This document shows, piece after piece, positions 2,152 through 64,000 of a DNA stretch of 64,000 nucleotides. Every line of letters begins with the position of its first letter. Position 1 is the first letter of the stretch. The notes below the pieces were generated by a model. It had not been told where the DNA came from. It ran no database searches and worked only from the letters and a program-made list of their open reading frames with translations. This DNA is from a virus: the IMG/VR virus record IMGVR_UViG_3300045988_129218; one strand, given 5' to 3'. The translations under genes were made by a program, and so were the position numbers.

Positions 2152-3426
2152 ATGACGGAGCAGGAAAAATATCTGGCGTACCTGAAGGCGCTGAAGGGCC
2201 GGTTTCAAAAAATATGCCGGCTGCGGTTTCTGAACCCGGATGGGAGCACGGCGTTTTTTGTGGACAACAACCCGCGAAATAAGTACAGCGGCGCCTTTAT
2301 CGCGGACGGGACGCTGACGGTGCATCTGCAGAACGGGGTGAGACGCACGGCCAGCGTGACGCTGAGCAATGTGGACGGCACATTTGACTACAACGTGAAC
2401 CACCTGTGGTTCGGGCAGGAGATTGCGCTGGATGAGGGGCTGGTTCTGCCGGACGGCGAGGACTACTACCTCCAGCAGGGCGTTTTCCTGATCCAGAACC
2501 CGCAGGAGGAGGTGCAGCCGGGCAGACGGCTGGTGCAGTACGACCTTGTGGATAAGTGGGCCAATCTGGACGGGACGCTGTGGGGCAGACTGGAGGGCAC
2601 TTACAAGGGGGCAGTGGGGGAAAATATCTTCCGGCAGGTCGATGCCCTACTGCAGGATGACAAGGGAAACGGGCAGAAAGTCGACCCCATCCCCCCGGTG
2701 TATACGGAGTATTACAACGGAAAAACGCAGGAACTGCCGGACGGCACCGCCGCCAACCTGACGGACGCGCCGTACACGTTGGAGGTGTCGCCGGGAGGAG
2801 GCACCTACGCATCGGTGATACTGGGTTTTGCGGAGATGCTGAACGCATGGGTGGGCTACGATGCTGCGGGACGGCTGCGGATAGATCCCAGTCAGGATGA
2901 TCTGCTGGACACGGAAAAACCGGTGAGCCGCGCCTTTTCCATGGAGGAGACCACGCTGCTGGGGATGACGTACACGGCGGAAAACACCGAGGTCTACAAC
3001 GACTATATCGTGCTTGGCGCCGCGCTGGATGACAACAGCCAGCCGGGGGCACGGGCCACCAACAACGACCCTATGAGCGACACGAACGTGCAGCTGATCG
3101 GGCGAAAGACGATATGGACGGAGGAGGACGGCTACACCACGCAGACCATGTGCCGCGACAGGGCGGAGTGGGAAATGAAGCGTTCCACGGTGCTGCAGAA
3201 AAGTGTGGACATCTCCTGCGCGCAGTTCTTCCACCTGGTCGAAAATACAATTGTCACGGTAGCAAGAAGTGACAAGGCGGGGATGCCTGTGGAGCGGCAT
3301 CTTGTGACCGGATTTTCAAGACCCCTGACGGGACAGGGGCAGATGTCCATATCCGCTACCAGCGTGGCAGATTTCCCTGTGGCGACGGTGACGGTATGGC
3401 CGCTGAAAACAAACACGGTAGCATAA
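2152..3426 (+). CDS. Phage tail component (distal-tail-protein-like)
   Basis: 424-aa ORF directly after the tape measure block. Protein-like composition. Call rests on synteny. Confidence 0.5.
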   Translation: MTEQEKYLAYLKALKGRFQKICRLRFLNPDGSTAFFVDNNPRNKYSGAFIADGTLTVHLQNGVRRTASVTLSNVDGTFDYNVNHLWFGQEIALDEGLVLPDGEDYYLQQGVFLIQNPQEEVQPGRRLVQYDLVDKWANLDGTLWGRLEGTYKGAVGENIFRQVDALLQDDKGNGQKVDPIPPVYTEYYNGKTQELPDGTAANLTDAPYTLEVSPGGGTYASVILGFAEMLNAWVGYDAAGRLRIDPSQDDLLDTEKPVSRAFSMEETTLLGMTYTAENTEVYNDYIVLGAALDDNSQPGARATNNDPMSDTNVQLIGRKTIWTEEDGYTTQTMCRDRAEWEMKRSTVLQKSVDISCAQFFHLVENTIVTVARSDKAGMPVERHLVTGFSRPLTGQGQMSISATSVADFPVATVTVWPLKTNTVA

Positions 3427-3448
3427 GCGGAGGGGAGGGAAGGACGAT

Positions 3449-5521
3449 ATGGCACTTTTCATGCCGACGAACATCACGCCCTCCACGCTGGGAGCGTTGG
3501 GAAACGGGACGGTGGATGCCTCCCGCGATATGACCGTGACGTGGCAGGTGGACGGGCAGAACGCCATGACGGCGTTTGAGATAAAAATTTACGCAAATAC
3601 GCCGGACAGCACACAGCTGTACGATACAGGGAAGAAGACGGACGGATGCCCGTTTTACGGCAGGGATGCAGGCGGCGATGTGGTGTTTTTCAGCTACACG
3701 ATACCGGCGTCGGCGCTGGCGGCGGCAGGGATCGCCAACGGGAACAGCTACAAGCTGCTGATCACACAGTGGTGGACGGGCAGCGCCAGCGTGACACAGC
3801 AAAGCGCGTCGGTCTTTATCTGCCGCAGCGCGCCCACGCTGGTCATCAACAGCTTTTCGCGGCCTGTGACCGGGAAACAGATGACGTGGACGGCCAGCTA
3901 TGCCCAGGCGCAGGGAGACCCACTGATATGGGTACGCTGGCAGCTGGCGGCAGCCGGCAGCACAGACGAACCGCTGTACGACACCGGCAACATCGCCACG
4001 GCACAACTGCAGTTCAGCTACGACGGTCTTTTCGCGGGGCAGCAATACGCCGTGCGGTGCCGCGTGGAGACGTCCAACGGCGTTACGGCGGATACGGGAT
4101 GGGTGCAGTTCGCGGTGCAGTACGATACTACCGGCTACAGCGGAGCGGTGGAGACGTGCGTGAAGCGGAGACAAAGCGGCGTGCTGGTATCGTGGCCGGG
4201 GGCCTATGACATACCCGGGACGGCCAGCGGGAATTACAGGGTCAGAAACGGGAAGCTGGATCTGCCGGCGGGGGCAAACGTAACATGGGACACGGTGACG
4301 GGCGCGTCCATGGCGATCTCGCCGGCGTGGAGCGCCGTATGGCGCGGGACGGTGACGGCGTTTCCGACGGGGCTGTTTTCGCTGGGAGCGGCGGACGGCC
4401 AGACGGTGGCGGTATCCGTATCCCGGACGGCGCTGACAGTGACGCAGGGCGGCGCGGAGGTGGGCCGCATCAGCGCGGCGTTTGTGCCGGGTGACGATCT
4501 CACGGTGGTGCTCCGCAGCGGTAAGTTGTATGTGCGCCGGCGGTATGAGACGGGGTTGTTTCCCGGCCAGAGCCTTTATGCTGCCAATGATCTCTTTCCG
4601 GTGCGCAGTCAGTACAGGATCGCGACTTATGCCGCCGATATGCAGCTGATGGAAACGACAGTGACGAGCGTGCAGCTGACAGGCGCGCAGACCTGCGATT
4701 ATATGTGGATAGAGGGCGGCGAGCTGCCGGATGCCACGCTTTCGCGACTGATGAGCGCCGCCGGATACACGCCGGAATTTGGCGGGGACACGCGGTTTCT
4801 GGCGGACTTTTCGGAGGATCTGCGGGGCGGCAACGTGGCGGCAGATGAGGCCATAACGGGCTGGTCGGTATACCGCAGGGCACAGGACGCCGCCGCGCTG
4901 GTACATGTGGCGGACACGGGATACGAGGAGCGCAGCGTCATAGATTGCGGCGCCGTGTCGCAGGAGACGTATGTGTATTACATATTTGGCCGGTCGGCCT
5001 TCTCGTTTGCCACCACGGCACTGGCTAGCCAGCCCGTGACGGTGTGCCTGTGGGACTGGACGATACTGGCCTGTGCGCAGGAGAAGAGCGGCGCTTTTCA
5101 GGTGGAGGACATTTTCCGGTTTTCGCTGAACGTGGAGAGCGGGACGATAAGCAACAACAATAAGCCGGCGCTGCTGGAGAACTTTACGCGGTATCCCACG
5201 GTGCAGATGTCTTCCCAGCTTTACAGGAGCGGTACGCTCAGCGGATATCTGGGAGAGGTGGATCAGAATGCCGAATACCATGATTCTGCAGCCCGGCTGG
5301 AGCAGTTGATGGCGTTGTCGCTGACAAGGCAGACGCTGTTTCTCAAGAACCGAAAGGGCAGCCTAATGCGGATATTCCTCAACGGGGAGATCACCGCGCA
5401 GACGCAGGATGCCACACGGCAGCAGGCGCTGATATGCGCGGTGCCGTGGTGTGAGACAGGAAATGCCCGCGACGCACAGCTGCTGATACGGCAGGGAAGT
5501 GCGCTTCGCGCCGCAATGTGA
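3449..5521 (+). CDS. Tail-associated / minor structural protein
   Basis: 690-aa ORF following the distal-tail-like gene. Call rests on synteny. Confidence 0.5.
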   Translation: MALFMPTNITPSTLGALGNGTVDASRDMTVTWQVDGQNAMTAFEIKIYANTPDSTQLYDTGKKTDGCPFYGRDAGGDVVFFSYTIPASALAAAGIANGNSYKLLITQWWTGSASVTQQSASVFICRSAPTLVINSFSRPVTGKQMTWTASYAQAQGDPLIWVRWQLAAAGSTDEPLYDTGNIATAQLQFSYDGLFAGQQYAVRCRVETSNGVTADTGWVQFAVQYDTTGYSGAVETCVKRRQSGVLVSWPGAYDIPGTASGNYRVRNGKLDLPAGANVTWDTVTGASMAISPAWSAVWRGTVTAFPTGLFSLGAADGQTVAVSVSRTALTVTQGGAEVGRISAAFVPGDDLTVVLRSGKLYVRRRYETGLFPGQSLYAANDLFPVRSQYRIATYAADMQLMETTVTSVQLTGAQTCDYMWIEGGELPDATLSRLMSAAGYTPEFGGDTRFLADFSEDLRGGNVAADEAITGWSVYRRAQDAAALVHVADTGYEERSVIDCGAVSQETYVYYIFGRSAFSFATTALASQPVTVCLWDWTILACAQEKSGAFQVEDIFRFSLNVESGTISNNNKPALLENFTRYPTVQMSSQLYRSGTLSGYLGEVDQNAEYHDSAARLEQLMALSLTRQTLFLKNRKGSLMRIFLNGEITAQTQDATRQQALICAVPWCETGNARDAQLLIRQGSALRAAM

Positions 5522-5545: not shown

Positions 5546-6319
5546 ATGGCATATACAGCGCCGAAATGGCAAAACGATGCACCGCCGGCCATCAACGCGG
5601 CGGCGATGCAGGAGATCAGCGACAATCTGGAGTATGTATCGAAGTATCTGACCAACGAGAATCTGATCGTCAACGGGAATTTCCGCCCATCTGTCCGCGT
5701 AAATCAGCGGGGACAGGCCGTCTATACCGGTACGGCGGTGGGGTTCGACATGTGGCGCGGGACGAACAGCTCCGTGCGAGCCACGCTGACGGGCACCGGA
5801 CTTACCATTGCTTCCGCGGACAGCAGCGTACAGCCGTTTTACAGGCAGAAGTTGGAGACCTATGACGATCTGCTGGGGCAGACCGTTACGCTGTCGGGGA
5901 TCACCGGAGGCGGTACGCTGCATACCGCAACGTCGACGCTGCCGGAGCTGCCGCCGGCTTCCGGTATCGGCTACTGCAATATACTGAACGTTTTCGATTT
6001 ATGGTTGGACAGCAGCGGTATGTATGTACGACTGAAAAGCAGCGTGGGCGGCACAATCGCCTTCCGGGCGGTAAAACTGGAGTTGGGCGACAAGCAGACG
6101 CTGGCGCATCAGGACGCAGACGGAAACTGGATACTGAACGATGAAGGGAATTACGCAGCGATGCTGCTGCGGTGCCAGCGGTATCTGCAGCTGTATGCGA
6201 CGGAAACTCTCCGTCCGTCCAAGGCGGCGGACTGCCGGCCCGTCATGCGCGTCAACCCCTCGCAGACCACGGTGGCGATAGACGGTACGACGTATTACGT
6301 CAACACCGCAGAGATGTAA
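5546..6319 (+). CDS. Tail fibre / receptor-binding-like protein
   Basis: N-terminus YTAPKWQNDAPPAINAAAMQEISDNLE resembles the conserved N-termini of Firmicutes phage fibre proteins. Position before the lysis genes. Confidence 0.4.
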   Translation: MAYTAPKWQNDAPPAINAAAMQEISDNLEYVSKYLTNENLIVNGNFRPSVRVNQRGQAVYTGTAVGFDMWRGTNSSVRATLTGTGLTIASADSSVQPFYRQKLETYDDLLGQTVTLSGITGGGTLHTATSTLPELPPASGIGYCNILNVFDLWLDSSGMYVRLKSSVGGTIAFRAVKLELGDKQTLAHQDADGNWILNDEGNYAAMLLRCQRYLQLYATETLRPSKAADCRPVMRVNPSQTTVAIDGTTYYVNTAEM

Positions 6320-12595: not shown

Positions 12596-12671
12596 TGGTG
12601 GGAGATCGGGGACTTGAACCCGGAACCGGGCCGTTATGAGCGGCCTGCTCTGCCGATTGAGCTAATCCCCC
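12596..12671 (-). tRNA. tRNA with CAU anticodon (Met or Ile2), CCA encoded; C50.C64 mismatch in T stem
   Basis: Hand-folded cloverleaf: GGGGGAT/ATCTCCC acceptor, loop CTCATAA, T loop TTCAAGT. Confidence 0.7.
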
Positions 12672-12839
12672 GTATGTGGGCGGCGCGGCTGCCCAGACCG
12701 CACCGCCCATCGAAAGGAGATTGGCCTGCCTGTATTCCAACAGGAGCCGGGGAAAATGAACAAAACCCGGTGCTGCTTCTTACAGCCGCAGCATATTGAG
12801 GAACTCTGCTACGAAAGCGGGGCGTTTGTGCGTCCCTTG

Positions 12840-12940
12840 TGCGGGAGGTGGGAATCGAACCCACGGAACGGCGACGCGCAAAAACGGAACAAGTTTTAGG
12901 AGGGACATTTGTTTTGCCGTTCGCCCCCTGGCGCCCCCGC
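12840..12940 (-). ncRNA. 101-nt tRNA-like element: intact acceptor, class-II-like D arm and T arm, but no canonical anticodon arm
   Basis: GCGGGGG/CTCCCGC acceptor. GCC-AGGGGGCGAAC-GGC D arm. GTGGG-TTCGATT-CCCAC T arm. The 50 nt in between do not fold into a 5-bp stem with a 7-nt loop. Confidence 0.5.
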
Positions 12941-12996
12941 ATAGAGAGTGGGGGAGGACGGTCTGGGGGATGCCCGCCTCCCCGATGGGGGTGGGT

Positions 12997-13068
12997 AGGG
13001 CGCGGTCGGAGTCGAACCGGCGTTTCCCTGCGGTCAAACAGGGCGTTCTGCCGTTGAACTACGCGCCC
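12997..13068 (-). tRNA. Aberrant tRNA: 8-nt anticodon loop UUUGACCG, C50.A64 T-stem mismatch, no encoded CCA
   Basis: GGGCGCG/CGCGCCC acceptor. GTTC/GAAC D stem. CCCTG-TTTGACCG-CAGGG. T loop TTCGACT. Confidence 0.5.
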
Positions 13069-13234
13069 GTAGTCGGGAGGAGGAAAGGTGGGGGGACCTC
13101 CTCCCGATGAGGTGGGGCGTTCCTTCGTTCGCTGTCACGCCCAAATCGTGCTACCGGCTGGTTCGACCCGGCGACACCGCTGCCAGACGCGGAGGTTTCA
13201 TTCCTGACGGGGGAAGTCATCCATCAGGCGGGCA

Positions 13235-13311
13235 TGGAGCAGCGTAGCGGATTTGAACCGCCACCCCCAGTTTGGAAGACTGGTGTGCTGACCGTTGAAC
13301 ACTAACGCTGC
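13235..13311 (-). tRNA. tRNA-Gly(UCC)
   Basis: GCAGCGT/ACGCTGC acceptor, loop CTTCCAA, T loop TTCAAAT, U73, CCA encoded. Confidence 0.85.
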
Positions 13312-13480
13312 ATGGGTGCTCGTCTTTCCGAGCCGCCAGATCTTTTCCGTGCCTCGCTTTTGCCAGCAGATCACAGGCGCAATTACAACATCGAGGCTTG
13401 AGGGGCTTACTTCAGGACTTCGCATCACCCATACGGCTGTTCCGCTAAAACGCTCGTCACTCGCGGTGTCCACGTAGAAT

Positions 13481-13555
13481 TGGCACAGACGGCTGGATTT
13501 GAACCAGCGAATGAGGGAGTCAAAGTCCCTTGCCTTACCGCTTGGCTACGCCTGC
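13481..13555 (-). tRNA. tRNA-Gln(UUG)
   Basis: TAGCCAAGCGGTAAGGCA D region. AGGGA-CTTTGAC-TCCCT. GCTGG-TTCAAAT-CCAGC. CCA encoded. Confidence 0.85.
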
Positions 13556-39826: not shown

Positions 39827-40059
39827 TCGTAAAGGCAATGTATTACAAGCCGTGGCAGAAGGGATACAGCGGACGGGCGTACACCTTCCGCACGAACCTG
39901 CCGTTGCAACCCGGCGACCATGTGCTGGTGCCGGGCAGCGAGGCGGACGAAAAGCCCGCCATGATTACCGAGGTTGATCTGCCGGAGAGCGTCATTGACC
40001 CGGCGTGGGCTGACCGGGTGAAGTGGATCACCCAGATGGATACGGAGGTGCGGGCATGA
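39823..40059 (+). CDS. Hypothetical protein (78 aa)
   Basis: ATGA overlap in operon. Confidence 0.45.
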   Translation: MIVKAMYYKPWQKGYSGRAYTFRTNLPLQPGDHVLVPGSEADEKPAMITEVDLPESVIDPAWADRVKWITQMDTEVRA

Positions 40060-40979
40060 GCGGGATGGTGGAATTTCGCATCACCTCCGACTTGCAGGAG
40101 ATCCGCAAGCAGGCCATTACCACCAACTACGCCGATGTAAAGGCGTGGGTGGACGGCGTGGCGGAGCAGTACCGCAGCATTGTGGTGACGGAGGACGGCG
40201 TACAAGCCGCCAAGCAGGACAGGGCGAACCTCCGCAAGCTGCAAGCCAACATCGATCAGGTACGCAAGGAATGCCGTGCGGCGGCGTTGGCGGTATCCGC
40301 GGAAACGGAGGCCAACTGCAAGGAGCTTGTGGCGACACTGGAAACCGCCGTACAGAACCTCGACACACAGGCCAAGGCGTTTGAGACCCAGCGCAAGGAG
40401 GAAAAGAAAAATCGTCTTTCTGCTTACTTCGATCAGGCGGTTTGCGACATGGCGGAGTGGCTGACCTTTGATGACTGCTTTAACTCCAAGTGGCTGAACG
40501 CCACCTACCCTGAGAGCACGGCACAGATGGACATAAACGCCGCCATAGACCGCTGCCGCGCCGACCTGAACGCCATCCGTGCTTTGCACAGCGAGTTCGA
40601 GACCACGCTGCTGGACGAGTACACCCGTACCCGGAACATCAGCGCGGTGCTGGTGAAGAACGAGACACTGTGCCGCATGAAGGCCGTCGAGGAGGAGCGA
40701 AAGCGCAAGGAAGCGGAGGCCGCGGCGAAGTACGAGGAGCAGAAAGCCGCCTGTGCTGCTGTCCGCATGGCGTCCGCCGGTGACGCTGTAATTGAAGAAC
40801 ACAGTGAAGTCGGACAGGTCATCGCCGCCGTGGAGCGCGAAGCATTTGAGCGTGCCGTGTCTGAGCCGGAACCTACCTACACCGTGGATTTCCGCGTATT
40901 CGGTACGGCGGCGCAGTTGGACGAGCTGCGTGTGTACATGAGGACTAAGGGCATCCGCTTTGGGCGTGTGCCGGAATAA
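40056..40979 (+). CDS. DUF1351-like phage protein
   Basis: NYADVKAWVDGVAEQYRSIVVTEDGVQAAKQDRANLRKLQANIDQVRKE matches the DUF1351 N-terminal pattern. Adjacent to recT, as is usual. Confidence 0.55.
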   Translation: MSGMVEFRITSDLQEIRKQAITTNYADVKAWVDGVAEQYRSIVVTEDGVQAAKQDRANLRKLQANIDQVRKECRAAALAVSAETEANCKELVATLETAVQNLDTQAKAFETQRKEEKKNRLSAYFDQAVCDMAEWLTFDDCFNSKWLNATYPESTAQMDINAAIDRCRADLNAIRALHSEFETTLLDEYTRTRNISAVLVKNETLCRMKAVEEERKRKEAEAAAKYEEQKAACAAVRMASAGDAVIEEHSEVGQVIAAVEREAFERAVSEPEPTYTVDFRVFGTAAQLDELRVYMRTKGIRFGRVPE

Positions 40980-40997
40980 CGGAAGGAGAGAAACACC

Positions 40998-41298
40998 ATG
41001 AAAGTCCAGAACCAGAGCAATTTTACCCAGATGGCACAGCAGAAGAAGCAGAAATTCAGCATGGCGATCACCGCCCCCAGCGCACAGCAGATGATCTCCC
41101 GCGCCCTCAAGAACGAGCGCATGGCGGCACGGTTTACCTCCACTCTGATCTCCGCCGTCAGCGCCAGTGAGCAGCTCAAGGCGTGTGACCCCGGCACCAT
41201 CATTGCCGCCGGTCTGCGGGGCGAGGGCATGGGCTTGATCTATGGCCACGGCTATTACATCGTCCCCTACGGCAGCGTGGCCCAGTTCAATCTTGGCT
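40998..41298 (+). CDS. recT: recT exon 1 (RecT-family single-strand annealing protein)
   Basis: ...GLRGEGMGLIYGHGYYIVPYGSVAQFNLG then TAA. Continues in frame at 42231 if the intervening 932 nt are removed. Confidence 0.75.
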
Positions 41299-42230
41299 AA
41301 ACTTTTATGGTCAAGTAAAACCGCGTGAACCCTATTACTCAGGGGTGTGCCGCCACAAGGCGGTGCTAACGGTGAAACCCGTCGAAAAAGGGCAATACCG
41401 TGCTGCGGTATTTTATTGGAGACAAGTATGACAGGTATTTATTTGATAACCAACAAGGTTTCTGGCGGTTCCTATGTTGGGAAAAGCGTAGATATTCACC
41501 GAAGATTTATTGAACACAGAACGGTGAATGCTGAACATAACGGAAGCTTGAAGGCAGCATTTTTGAAATACGGGGTTGAGTGCTTTTCTTTTGAAGTTTT
41601 GGAGGAGTGCCCTGTTGAGATGCTGAATGAGCGAGAAATGTACTACATCGATAAATTGAATCCTTCTTATAACCGCACAAAGGGTGGAGACGGGCGATCT
41701 CGAAGATTGACTCCGGCTGAAAAGGAACATTTGCGCCAGTGCGGAAAACGCCAATGGGCCAATATGTCCGAATCAGCAAGAGAGACGCAAATTCGCAACA
41801 ACCTGAAAGGTCCTAAAGTTGGCCATCCTGTATCACAGGAAACGCGAGAAAAGCTTAGAAAAGCTAACATTGGGAAAACTGCCAGCCCCGAAACAATTGC
41901 AAAAAGAAAAACAACTATGGCAAAAAAAGGCATTGAGTTGTTTAACGGAAAGCGTTATATGCGCCCCATCCGCTGCATTGAAACGGGCGAAACCTTTGAG
42001 AGTTTGAAAGAAGCCGAAAAAAAGTACGGGCTAACAACTCTCTGCGCCCACTTAAAGGGGAAATACAAAACCTGTAAAGGTCTTCATTACGAATACTTGA
42101 GTGTAGAGACTACCCGTGATGAATGTAGCGGGGTAGGGCAGAAGATGAGTTACTGCCCGAAGTGCGCGGCACACAAAAAAGTGTGAAGAGATAGTCCACC
42201 CCGGCGCGATGATAAAGCGCCGGAATAGTG
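41299..42230 (+). mobile_element. Group-I-intron-like insert with homing endonuclease ORF
   Basis: P1 CTTGGCT/GGTCAAG with a U.G pair. R-like GAGACTAC and S-like GATAGTC (P7 GACTA/TAGTC). P9-like hairpin at 42201-42223. Terminal G at 42230. Confidence 0.75.
41428..42186 (+). CDS. GIY-YIG homing endonuclease (intron-encoded)
   Basis: GIYLITNKVSGGSYVGKS...RRFIEH...ECFSFEVLE...REMYYIDKLNPSYN, plus repeated G..VS.ETR.K-type NUMOD3-like motifs. Confidence 0.8.
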   Translation: MTGIYLITNKVSGGSYVGKSVDIHRRFIEHRTVNAEHNGSLKAAFLKYGVECFSFEVLEECPVEMLNEREMYYIDKLNPSYNRTKGGDGRSRRLTPAEKEHLRQCGKRQWANMSESARETQIRNNLKGPKVGHPVSQETREKLRKANIGKTASPETIAKRKTTMAKKGIELFNGKRYMRPIRCIETGETFESLKEAEKKYGLTTLCAHLKGKYKTCKGLHYEYLSVETTRDECSGVGQKMSYCPKCAAHKKV

Positions 42231-42964
42231 ATAAAGGTTACATCCAGCTCGCCATGTCCACGGGCTTTTACGAGGACATTGACTGCATCGAGGTGCGCGA
42301 GGGCGAGCGGGAGGGACGAGACTCCCGTACCGGTAAGCCCATTATCAACCTTGCCAAGTACGAAACGGACGAGGAGCGTGACGCCCACAAGATCATCGGC
42401 TATTACGCCTACTACAAGCTGAACACCGGTTCCTTCCGCATGGAATATTGGCCGATGGACAAGCTGCTGCGTCACGCAGACCGATACTCCCCCGCCTTCA
42501 AGCTGGAGAAGTACAACGCCCTCATCAACGGTGAGCTGGACGCCAAGGAGCAGGCCAAACTTCTGAACGGTACGCCGTGGTATGACGTGAACGGCGGTCA
42601 GGACAGAATGTGCAAAAAAACTGTGCTCCGCAGCCTGCTGAACAGCGGCTATGCTCCTCTTTCCAACGAGGTACGCAGCTACTTCAACGAGGACAGAGAG
42701 GACGGAGTTGTGACGGACATCCCCGCCGCTCCTGCGGAGAGCGCCATCCCCGTGACAGATTTTTCCGTCAGCGAGGAAAATCGTGGTCAAGCAGAGGAAA
42801 CCACCGCAGAGCCTCCCACAAGCGCCGCTGTGGGTGAGAATGTCCCCGCCAATGGTAAGGATGCCGCCACTATCAAAAAGCGCCTAGAACGCAAGGAAAC
42901 GGCGGATGCGGCGACCGAGAGCGCAGAGGACTTCACCAACGGTTTCTTTGGGGAGGGTGAGTAA
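42231..42964 (+). CDS. recT: recT exon 2
   Basis: (Y)KGYIQLAMSTGFYEDIDCIEVREGE... is typical of the RecT core. Acidic C-terminal tail. Confidence 0.75.
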
Positions 42965-62321: not shown

Positions 62322-62396
62322 GCGGATTTAGTTTAAGTGGGAAAACGGCGGTCTCCAAAACCGCAGTTCGGGGTTCGAGTCCTCGCGTCCGTGCCA
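62322..62396 (+). tRNA. Phage-encoded tRNA-Trp(CCA)
   Basis: GCGGT-CTCCAAA-ACCGC. CGGGG-TTCGAGT-CCTCG. G73, CCA encoded. Acceptor stem has two G.U pairs and a U7.C66 mismatch. Confidence 0.75.
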
Positions 62397-62455
62397 GATG
62401 AAAACGTTGGATCGTTTTCGCCCGAAAGGGAGTTTATGGGGCGGAAGCCCCATAC

Positions 62456-62531
62456 GGAAATGTAGCTCAGTTGGCAGAGCATCTGACTGTTAATCAGAGG
62501 GGCGCAGGTTCAAGCCCTGCCGTTTCCGCCA
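62456..62531 (+). tRNA. Phage-encoded tRNA-Asn(GUU)
   Basis: GGAAATG/CGTTTCC acceptor. TCTGA-CTGTTAA-TCAGA. GCAGG-TTCAAGC-CCTGC. G73, CCA. Confidence 0.85.
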
Positions 62532-63849: not shown

Positions 63850-64000
63850 ATGGCACCGCAGCAATTCTCCGTGGGGCAGAACGCAGAAGAGATAGAAGTA
63901 CGCGATATACAGCCGGTAGTAGAGATAGAGCTGCGCGATATACAACCGGTAGTAGAGATAGAGCTGCGCGATATACAACCGGTAGTAGAGATAGAGCTGC
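63850..64000 (+). CDS. ORF with 11-aa tandem repeats (3' partial)
   Basis: ATG 1 nt after the upstream stop. Reads MAPQQFSVGQNAEEIEV(RDIQPVVEIEL)x3... Confidence 0.5.
   Translation, partial: MAPQQFSVGQNAEEIEVRDIQPVVEIELRDIQPVVEIELRDIQPVVEIEL
63901..63999 (+). repeat. 33-bp tandem repeat x3 (continues past the window)
   Basis: CGCGATATACA[G/A]CCGGTAGTAGAGATAGAGCTG. Units 2 and 3 are identical. Confidence 0.9.

Follow-up and report, generated by a model that had tools for sequence, protein, structure and literature searches.

In the virus record IMGVR_UViG_3300045988_129218, the gene for a RecT-family annealase (recT) is cut in two by a 932-nucleotide (nt) insert. The DNA analyzed was a stretch of 64,000 nt of this record, called the window throughout, and coordinates refer to it unless another locus is named. 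Without database searches, the insert had previously been taken for a group-I-intron-like element carrying a GIY-YIG homing endonuclease (here called the sequence-only reading), and the present analysis followed up that claim. The locus contains the following features:

40998..41298, + strand: recT exon 1, 100 codons and the first base of codon 101
41299..42230, + strand: predicted IA2-like group I intron, 932 nt (missing from the relatives L001 and L002; covarying helices; z = -5.39 for the fold of the RNA from which the open reading frame, ORF, was deleted)
41428..42186, + strand: ORF of 252 amino acids (aa), putative GIY-YIG homing endonuclease (PF01541), in the P6a loop of the intron
42231..42964, + strand: recT exon 2, from the last two bases of codon 101 to the stop

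The ORF of exon 1 (40998-41300) ends after 100 aa at a TAA stop composed of the exon base T41298 and the intron bases A41299-A41300, and the ORF at 42209-42964 carries the rest of recT, with the C-terminal two thirds of the RecT domain (47.3 bits, profile positions 63-187, Pfam); both agree with the sequence-only reading. The ATG of the second ORF sits within the P9 hairpin of the insert and is not the true start of this part of recT. When T41298 was joined to A42231, the sequence became ...CTT GGC TAT AAA GGT TAC... in one frame for a 344-aa protein, with ...AQFNLGYKGYIQL...; ...VAQFNLGYKGYIQLAMSTGFYEDIDCIEVR as the peptide spanning the exon junction. Aligned with Pfam RecT (PF03837), a comparison that had been proposed earlier, the joined protein scored 76.6 bits over profile positions 2-187, and its alignment with the solved RecT 7UB2 (E 1e-23) was continuous through the junction (AQFNLGYKGYIQLA against AQFQLGYKGYIQLA). 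No insertions or deletions were found there in comparison with five uninterrupted homologues, and the junction predicted from the letters, with its frame of about 344 aa, coincides with the point where uninterrupted recT genes are continuous. The GC content is approximately 0.60 in the exons and 0.40-0.48 in the insert.

Two relatives, the human-gut phage MT835520 (locus L001) and the IMG/VR contig L002, have recT in one piece with exactly 932 nt fewer, and removal of the insert from the window restores the gene exactly. The RecT of L002 is 90% identical in aa to that of the window, and at the junction it reads CTT GGG TAC AAG GGC TAC, versus CTT GGC T and AT AAA GGT TAC on the two sides of the insertion point in the window. 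The four differences between the two, which extend from 2 nt upstream to 9 nt downstream of the junction, are all synonymous, and at least three of them (Gly G to C, Lys G to A, and C to T in the next Gly) create or strengthen pairing with the guide sequence of the intron. Among 41 closely related recT loci in IMG/VR, the insert was present in one (L033/L043), and its distribution is thus sporadic.

At least five diverged recT lineages, which come from gut phages and from metagenome-assembled genomes (MAGs) of Lachnospiraceae and Faecalibaculum, carry the same intron at the same recT codon, between LG and (Y/W)(K/R)G. The five recT lineages, and two related introns in other genes, are:

Window and L043: recT
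L044-L049: recT, the second lineage, found by a protein search with the endonuclease
L052 and L068: AT-rich recT
L058, L078 and L079: recT, which in L058 adjoins a YqaJ-type exonuclease
L077: recT, in a Lachnospiraceae MAG
L076: nrdD, with an HNH ORF in the P6a loop and with the P3.1 and P3.2 hairpins
L070: RNA-polymerase-like gene, with a GIY-YIG ORF

A pattern made from the R and S core elements (TAGAGACTAC, 55-85 nt, AAGAGATAGTCC) gave 27 viral loci. In four of the 17 Rfam-scanned loci (L053, L057, L064, and L067), hits above the gathering score of the group I intron model RF00028 (59-85 bits) lay over the pattern, which indicates that the motif marks genuine group I introns, and the motif within those four hits is identical to that of the window. 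P7.1 and P7.2 are common to the window, L052/L068, L058, L076, and L070. A 5'-half pattern run on species-representative genomes gave three more introns, all in recT (two Lachnospiraceae MAGs and one Faecalibaculum MAG); L077 is one of these and represents a further recT lineage.

When the ORF-deleted intron was compared by blastn with 50,697 deposited phage records, the recT intron was absent and only the 3' core matched, with 76% identity over 89 nt (E 3e-6 in a search space of 2.3 Gb), to nrdD introns carried by Vequintavirus phages of E. coli. The nrdD gene of one of these, phage JEP1 (MT740314, L080), is split into three coding sequences by two introns, with an intron ORF annotated as 'HNH homing endonuclease, Phage intron'. 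Since the 5' half of the JEP1 nrdD intron holds the T4 td stretch UCUAUCUAAACGGGGAA...CAAUCCCGUGCUAAA, the recT intron family is tied to the archetypal IA2 intron. A three-block pattern (P4...P4'...P7) run on viral contigs gave no ORF-less relative that Rfam could score.

Three other observations were made among these loci. Records MG065644-MG065690, named 'Campylobacter phage' (approximately 140 kb, unannotated), carry a Vequintavirus-type nrdD intron core at 75% identity, which equals the value for E. coli rV5-like phages and seems odd for Campylobacter phages. In L064 (IMGVR_UViG_3300035208_001008), five RF00028 gathering hits (60-85 bits) lie back to back within 1.6 kb (2250-3805), apparently five ORF-less group I introns packed together. 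In L053 (204-1161) and L067 (9735-11285), a group I intron (RF00028, 59.6 bits) lies approximately 0.4-1 kb from a permuted tmRNA gene.

The anatomy of the insert was worked out together with an alignment of eight introns (set A5: window, L044, L052, L058, L077, L076, L070, and JEP1). The elements, all on the + strand, are given below with the number of pairs in which both sides have changed among the eight introns.

41292-98 with 41309-15: P1, CUUGGCU with GGUCAAG, 7 base pairs (bp), U41298.G41309 at the cleavage site; double changes in 4 of 7 pairs
41309..41315: internal guide sequence GGUCAAG, the 3' strand of P1
41302-08 with 42231-37: P10, CUUUUAU with AUAAAGG of exon 2, 7 bp, intron strand directly 5' of the guide strand, the usual place in group I introns
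41321-27 with 42163-69: P3, CCGCGUG with UGCGCGG, abutting P8; 5 of 7
41330-33 with 41341-44: P3.1 hairpin, between P3 and J3/4; 2 of 4
41347-54 with 41359-66: P3.2 hairpin, between P3 and J3/4; 3 of 5
J3/4: UAA
41369-73 with 41397-401: P4, ACGGU with ACCGU, T4 td-like layout; 2 of 5
41378-80 with 41390-92: P5, CCC with GGG, flanked by J4/5 GAAA and J5/4 CAAU, T4 td-like layout; 2 of 3
41402-04 with 42100-02: P6, GCU with AGU
41407-18 with 42085-97: P6a, closing the loop that contains the endonuclease ORF
42108-12 with 42192-96: P7, GACUA (R element) with UAGUC (S element), the guanosine-binding helix; invariant, no double changes
42113-16 with 42129-32: P7.1; 4 of 4
42136-41 with 42153-58: P7.2; 4 of 6
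42170-74 with 42181-85: P8 hairpin, CACAC with GUGUG; 4 of 5
J8/7: AAGAGA, directly 5' of the P7 3' strand
42201-07 with 42217-23: P9 hairpin, CCGGCGC with GCGCCGG; 7 of 7
Ending at G42230: 3' tail AAUAGUG with the terminal guanosine (omega G), the junction being set by the uninterrupted homologues

Set A5 was condensed by hand to helix strands, anchored on invariant junctions; loops were replaced by fixed spacers, and the P3/P7 pseudoknot was included. Standard pairs made up 98.7% of 474 cells, a percentage that is biased upward because the strands were picked by the author; shuffles gave 78.2 ± 1.3%, and sliding the partners by 1-3 columns gave 32-41%. Among the 61 pairs, which belong to 12 helices, both sides had changed in 38, compared with 16.3 ± 2.6 in shuffles and at most 11 after sliding, and none of 500 shuffles reached the observed value on any measure. 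Compensatory changes occurred in all helices apart from the invariant P7. The register of A5 is set by invariant motifs on either side of the strands, and double substitutions in such number are beyond selection by eye.

The U.G pair of P1 is unchanged in all eight introns, and the P7 5' strand GACUA did not vary in any of the 21 introns of alignment A4. Compensatory changes are exemplified by P3 of L076 (CGAUGUG/CGCAUCG) and by CGAU/AUCG of L052 in the P4-P5 segment (window 41369-41401). P10 has 6 bp in L058 and L077 and is weak (3 bp) in L052. The P6a stem is unrelated in sequence from one lineage to the next and yet complementary in each (L044, L052, L058, L077, L076, and L070), with a perfect stem of 11 bp in L044 and one of 15 bp in L058. 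P3.1 and P3.2 were found in the recT introns, L076, and L070, and are missing from JEP1 nrdD and T4 td; P3.1 is among the optional pairings of group I introns (PMC3873408).

The ORF-deleted RNA was also folded without constraints. The minimum free energy (MFE) was -108 kcal/mol against -82 ± 4.8 for shuffles (z = -5.39), and P1, P3, P3.2, P4, P5, P6/6a, P7.2, P8, and P9 were recovered; P7 is not visible in such a fold because it forms a pseudoknot with P3. Two alternative pairings were tried and rejected. An alternative P3 (GUGCCGC 41347-53 with GCGGCAC 42166-72) destroys P8, lengthens J3/4 to 16 nt, and does not covary; 41347-66 is a local hairpin whose sequence is wholly different in L058, L076, and L070. 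P6 drawn as CAAGU 41423-27 with ACUUG 42094-98 is broken in L044, and the actual closing stem is GCU/AGU plus P6a. With an anatomy running from P1 to P10, the insert is predicted to be an IA2-like group I intron, a subgroup assignment that was made from P7.1/P7.2 and sequence relatedness. All structural elements named in the sequence-only reading are real, namely P1 with its U.G pair at the cleavage site, the R and S elements forming P7, and the hairpin at 42201-42223 followed by the terminal G42230, but that reading was incomplete, as it had overlooked P10, the rest of the core, the two extra hairpins, the position of the ORF in the P6a loop with its 81-nt extension into the catalytic core, and the existence of an intron family in several recT lineages.

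The comparison of the window with the L044 lineage showed how unevenly the locus has changed. In nt, recT exon 1 was 68.5% identical and the endonuclease ORF, its core overlap excluded, 67.5%. The 5' core reached 88.7%, with most changes in loops L3.2 and L5, the 3' core 95.5%, and the 81 nt of the ORF that overlap P7-P8 95.1%. The six differences in the 3' core are confined to L7.2, L8, L9, and the 3' tail, and no helix is affected. Such a pattern suggests that the RNA itself is under selection.

The ORF in the P6a loop matched the Pfam GIY-YIG family PF01541 with 45.4 bits (cut-off 22.6, E 1e-11), whereas the additional NUMOD label of the sequence-only reading is weak, as the NUMOD3 match (15.4 bits) lies under its cut-off of 20.4. 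The protein can be aligned with I-TevI residues 3-88 (catalytic domain, 1LN0/1MK0) and retains GIY, YVG, and the positions of Arg and Glu. It is 69% identical in aa to the endonucleases of the L044-L049 lineage, 43% to that of L052, and 30% to that of L058. A Shine-Dalgarno sequence (GGAG 41418-41421) lies at the 3' edge of the P6a 5' strand. In L052 and L058, the UAG of J6/7 is the stop codon of the endonuclease. The frame of the window and L044 misses this UAG and therefore runs for 27 further codons through P7-P8 to UGA 42184-86, so that the final 81 nt of the ORF overlap P7, P7.1, P7.2, the P3 3' strand, and P8. As a consequence, a single RNA could either have its ORF translated or fold its core, but not both at once.

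The C-terminal peptide SVETT(R/G)DECS is common to the GIY-YIG ORF of the window (42100-42186) and the unrelated HNH ORF of L076 (L076 7690-7737), because the two ORFs run through the conserved ribozyme core (J6/7-P7-P7.1) in one and the same frame; it does not indicate protein homology. In L077 (approximately 6150-6180, Lachnospiraceae MAG JAJPWX010000110), the GIY-YIG ORF is frameshifted at an A run while the ribozyme helices are intact, and the frameshift reflects decay of the endonuclease or else a sequencing error in the homopolymer.

We consider it very probable that a mobile group I intron of the T4 td-like (IA2) phage kind occupies 41299-42230, within the recT gene of a Firmicute-type phage module. 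The neighbours of recT are genes for DUF1351, SSB, and a phage replisome organiser, and together these form a typical Firmicute-phage recombination and replication module. That recT is split by a 932-nt group I intron, as first proposed from the letters of the window, is supported well beyond chance by the exact absence of the insert from relatives and by the covarying helices.

From the sequence we propose the following course of events. The recT operon would be transcribed through the intron, and ribosomes on exon 1 would halt at the UAA spanning the 5' splice site, so that the guide sequence stays accessible. The exon-1 frame of every recT lineage ends upstream of the guide strand, either at the 5' splice site or no more than 12 nt from it; in the td intron, the upstream stop releases the ribosome from the RNA and thereby allows P1 to form. 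The RNA would then fold with its P3-P8 and P4-P6 domains around P7, and an external guanosine held in P7 would attack after U41298, at the U.G pair in P1. P10 would align exon 2, and the freed 3'-OH would attack after G42230 to give an mRNA for the intact 344-aa RecT; this corresponds to the standard two-step guanosine-initiated pathway, with the junction defined by P1 and P10.

The I-TevI-like endonuclease would be translated from its own ribosome-binding site in the P6a loop and would cut near the LGYKG codons in the intron-less recT of relatives, whether co-infecting or resident, after which recombinational repair would copy the intron into the cut allele. The intron-less sequence of L002 around GGG TAC AAG GGC is a candidate cleavage substrate. 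Homing into alleles such as that of L002 is to be expected, because the N-terminal domain aligns with 1LN0/1MK0, the distribution is patchy, and the exon bases CTTGGCT before and ATAAAGGTTA after the insertion point are shared by two lineages whose exons otherwise differ by about one third.

Several points weigh against the intron interpretation. Splicing, endonuclease activity, and homing are inferred from sequence. The ORF passes through P7-P8, and its translation must compete with folding of the core. The covariation rests on a hand-condensed alignment with author-chosen strands and an inflated percentage of pairing, and the two extra hairpins between P3 and J3/4 have no counterpart in T4 td. 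A weaker point is that RF00028 gave no match in the whole window, in 41200-42300 at E ≤ 10, or in either intron half alone. The sequence-only reading had named the lack of a covariance-model hit as evidence that would speak against an intron, but the T4-type td locus of phage PQ759884 (L081; thymidylate synthase exon, homing endonuclease, thymidylate synthase exon), included as a control, also gave no match at E ≤ 1. The negative result is uninformative, since a T4-type td intron is missed equally; the two JEP1 nrdD introns reached 27.7 and 32.9 bits against a gathering score of 50. It is the 760-nt ORF in P6a that defeats the model, as for T4 td.

Among the alternatives, the insert could be a group I intron by descent that is now decaying, a copy that has lost splicing or mobility, recT of this phage being a pseudogene or the intron being fixed and immobile. 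Homing cycles usually include decay of the endonuclease, and the frameshifted ORF of the family member L077 would fit such a course. The window, however, shows no damage in any of the 12 helices, an untruncated endonuclease ORF that can be aligned over the I-TevI catalytic domain, two conserved recT exons with open frames, and not one helix substitution relative to a lineage whose exons are approximately 32% different. A decaying copy is thus very unlikely.

It could also be that a free-standing homing endonuclease gene has entered recT and no splicing occurs, RecT being made as two polypeptides that reassemble or being inactivated. Genes split by endonuclease insertions whose products reassemble have been described for T4-like phages, both recT fragments are separate ORFs, the second with an in-frame ATG at 42209, and Rfam finds no intron. 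That ATG nevertheless lies within the P9 hairpin and lacks a Shine-Dalgarno sequence. Furthermore, such an insertion does not account for approximately 170 nt of non-coding flanks that, with the last 81 nt of the ORF, are conserved far above coding sequence and make 12 covarying helices in group I topology, for P1/P10 guide pairings that track exon changes in other lineages, or for an insert bounded exactly by U and G whose removal restores the frame. We regard a split gene without splicing as most improbable. An intein is ruled out by stop codons of the insert in the recT frame, and a group II intron by the lack of a reverse transcriptase and of a domain V-like structure.

The mobile group I intron might be more than a passive parasite. 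Its insertion site is the most conserved motif of the phage's own annealase; the endonuclease could, by cutting, disable recT of intron-less rival phages or prophages while supplying the repair template, the RecT annealase plausibly being one of the functions that repair the break made by the endonuclease. The splicing efficiency, through translation of the ORF across P7-P8, could set the timing or dose of RecT. Interference competition has been reported for the PhiPA3 intron endonuclease gp210 (bioRxiv 10.1101/2023.09.30.560319). For the recT intron, we consider such a role doubtful.

The splitting of recT has consequences for annotation. Gene callers give a 100-aa ORF, a 251-aa ORF, and a 'homing endonuclease', and since Rfam does not flag the intron, recT genes of this kind are easily scored as broken; gut phages and MAGs contain at least five recT lineages with this problem. 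RecT proteins of gut Firmicute phages are candidates for recombineering tools, and their expression needs the correct spliced sequence. The family is a compact natural set of covarying IA2 cores with and without P3.1/P3.2, and would be useful for improving covariance models that miss ORF-bearing phage introns. Homing endonucleases as a rule target the most conserved codons, and insertion at the LGYKG motif fits this rule.

A few other features of the window were noted. An antisense ORF of 468 aa (39843-41249, - strand) overlaps the DUF1351 gene and recT exon 1 and is probably a GC-rich artefact. The apparent phage genome has two tRNA clusters, one with four genes (12599-13555, - strand) and one with two (62322-62528, + strand). 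At 63888-64000, a 33-nt tandem repeat (AGAGATAGAGCTGCGCGATATACAACCGGTAGT; 3.4 copies, 95% match) extends past the last base of the window.

Group I introns with GIY-YIG or HNH endonucleases are textbook elements of phage DNA-metabolism genes (td, nrdB, nrdD, and polymerase, among others). The recT intron is most readily compared with the IA2 intron of T4 td, which carries I-TevI. The core order is the same (P1, P3, J3/4 UAA, P4, J4/5, P5, J5/4 CAAU, P4', P6/P6a, P7, P7.1, P7.2, P3', P8, P7', P9), the P4/J5/4/P6 motif is near-identical (CUAAACGGGGAA...CAAUCCCGUGCU in td, CUAACGGUGAAA...CAAUACCGUGCU in the recT intron), P7 is GACUA/UAGUC in both, a GIY-YIG endonuclease occupies the P6a loop in both, and the upstream exon stops in frame at the very start of the intron. 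The two differ in the host gene, which is thymidylate synthase in td. Apart from its two extra hairpins, the recT intron lacks P2, has a short 3' end with a single P9 hairpin and a 7-nt tail, and has an ORF that extends 81 nt into the core.

The closest RNA relatives found are the phage nrdD introns of JEP1 and L076, with a 3' core 76% identical over 89 nt and an identical P7.1 loop (UGAUGAAUGUAG); L076 also shares the P3.1/P3.2 hairpins and an ORF in the P6a loop. These introns differ in their host gene and in having HNH instead of GIY-YIG endonucleases, and JEP1 is without P3.1/P3.2. The loci that share the R/S motif and score 59-85 bits with RF00028 (Intron_gpI) link the recT intron to the general group I model. 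In another Firmicute recombination gene, recA of Bacillus anthracis, a self-splicing group I intron is known, but recA encodes a strand-exchange ATPase unrelated to RecT annealases.

The sequence-only reading knew of no group I intron in recT, and no earlier report of one was found in the full-text literature, where most subscription journals were not covered and absence is not proof, or, as described above, in the deposited phage genomes. The RecT annealase thus joins the phage DNA-metabolism genes colonised by IA2 introns. recT is a new host gene for a known kind of selfish element, and what the intron adds beyond this, namely P3.1/P3.2, the overlap of ORF and core, and the recurrence across recT lineages, is modest.

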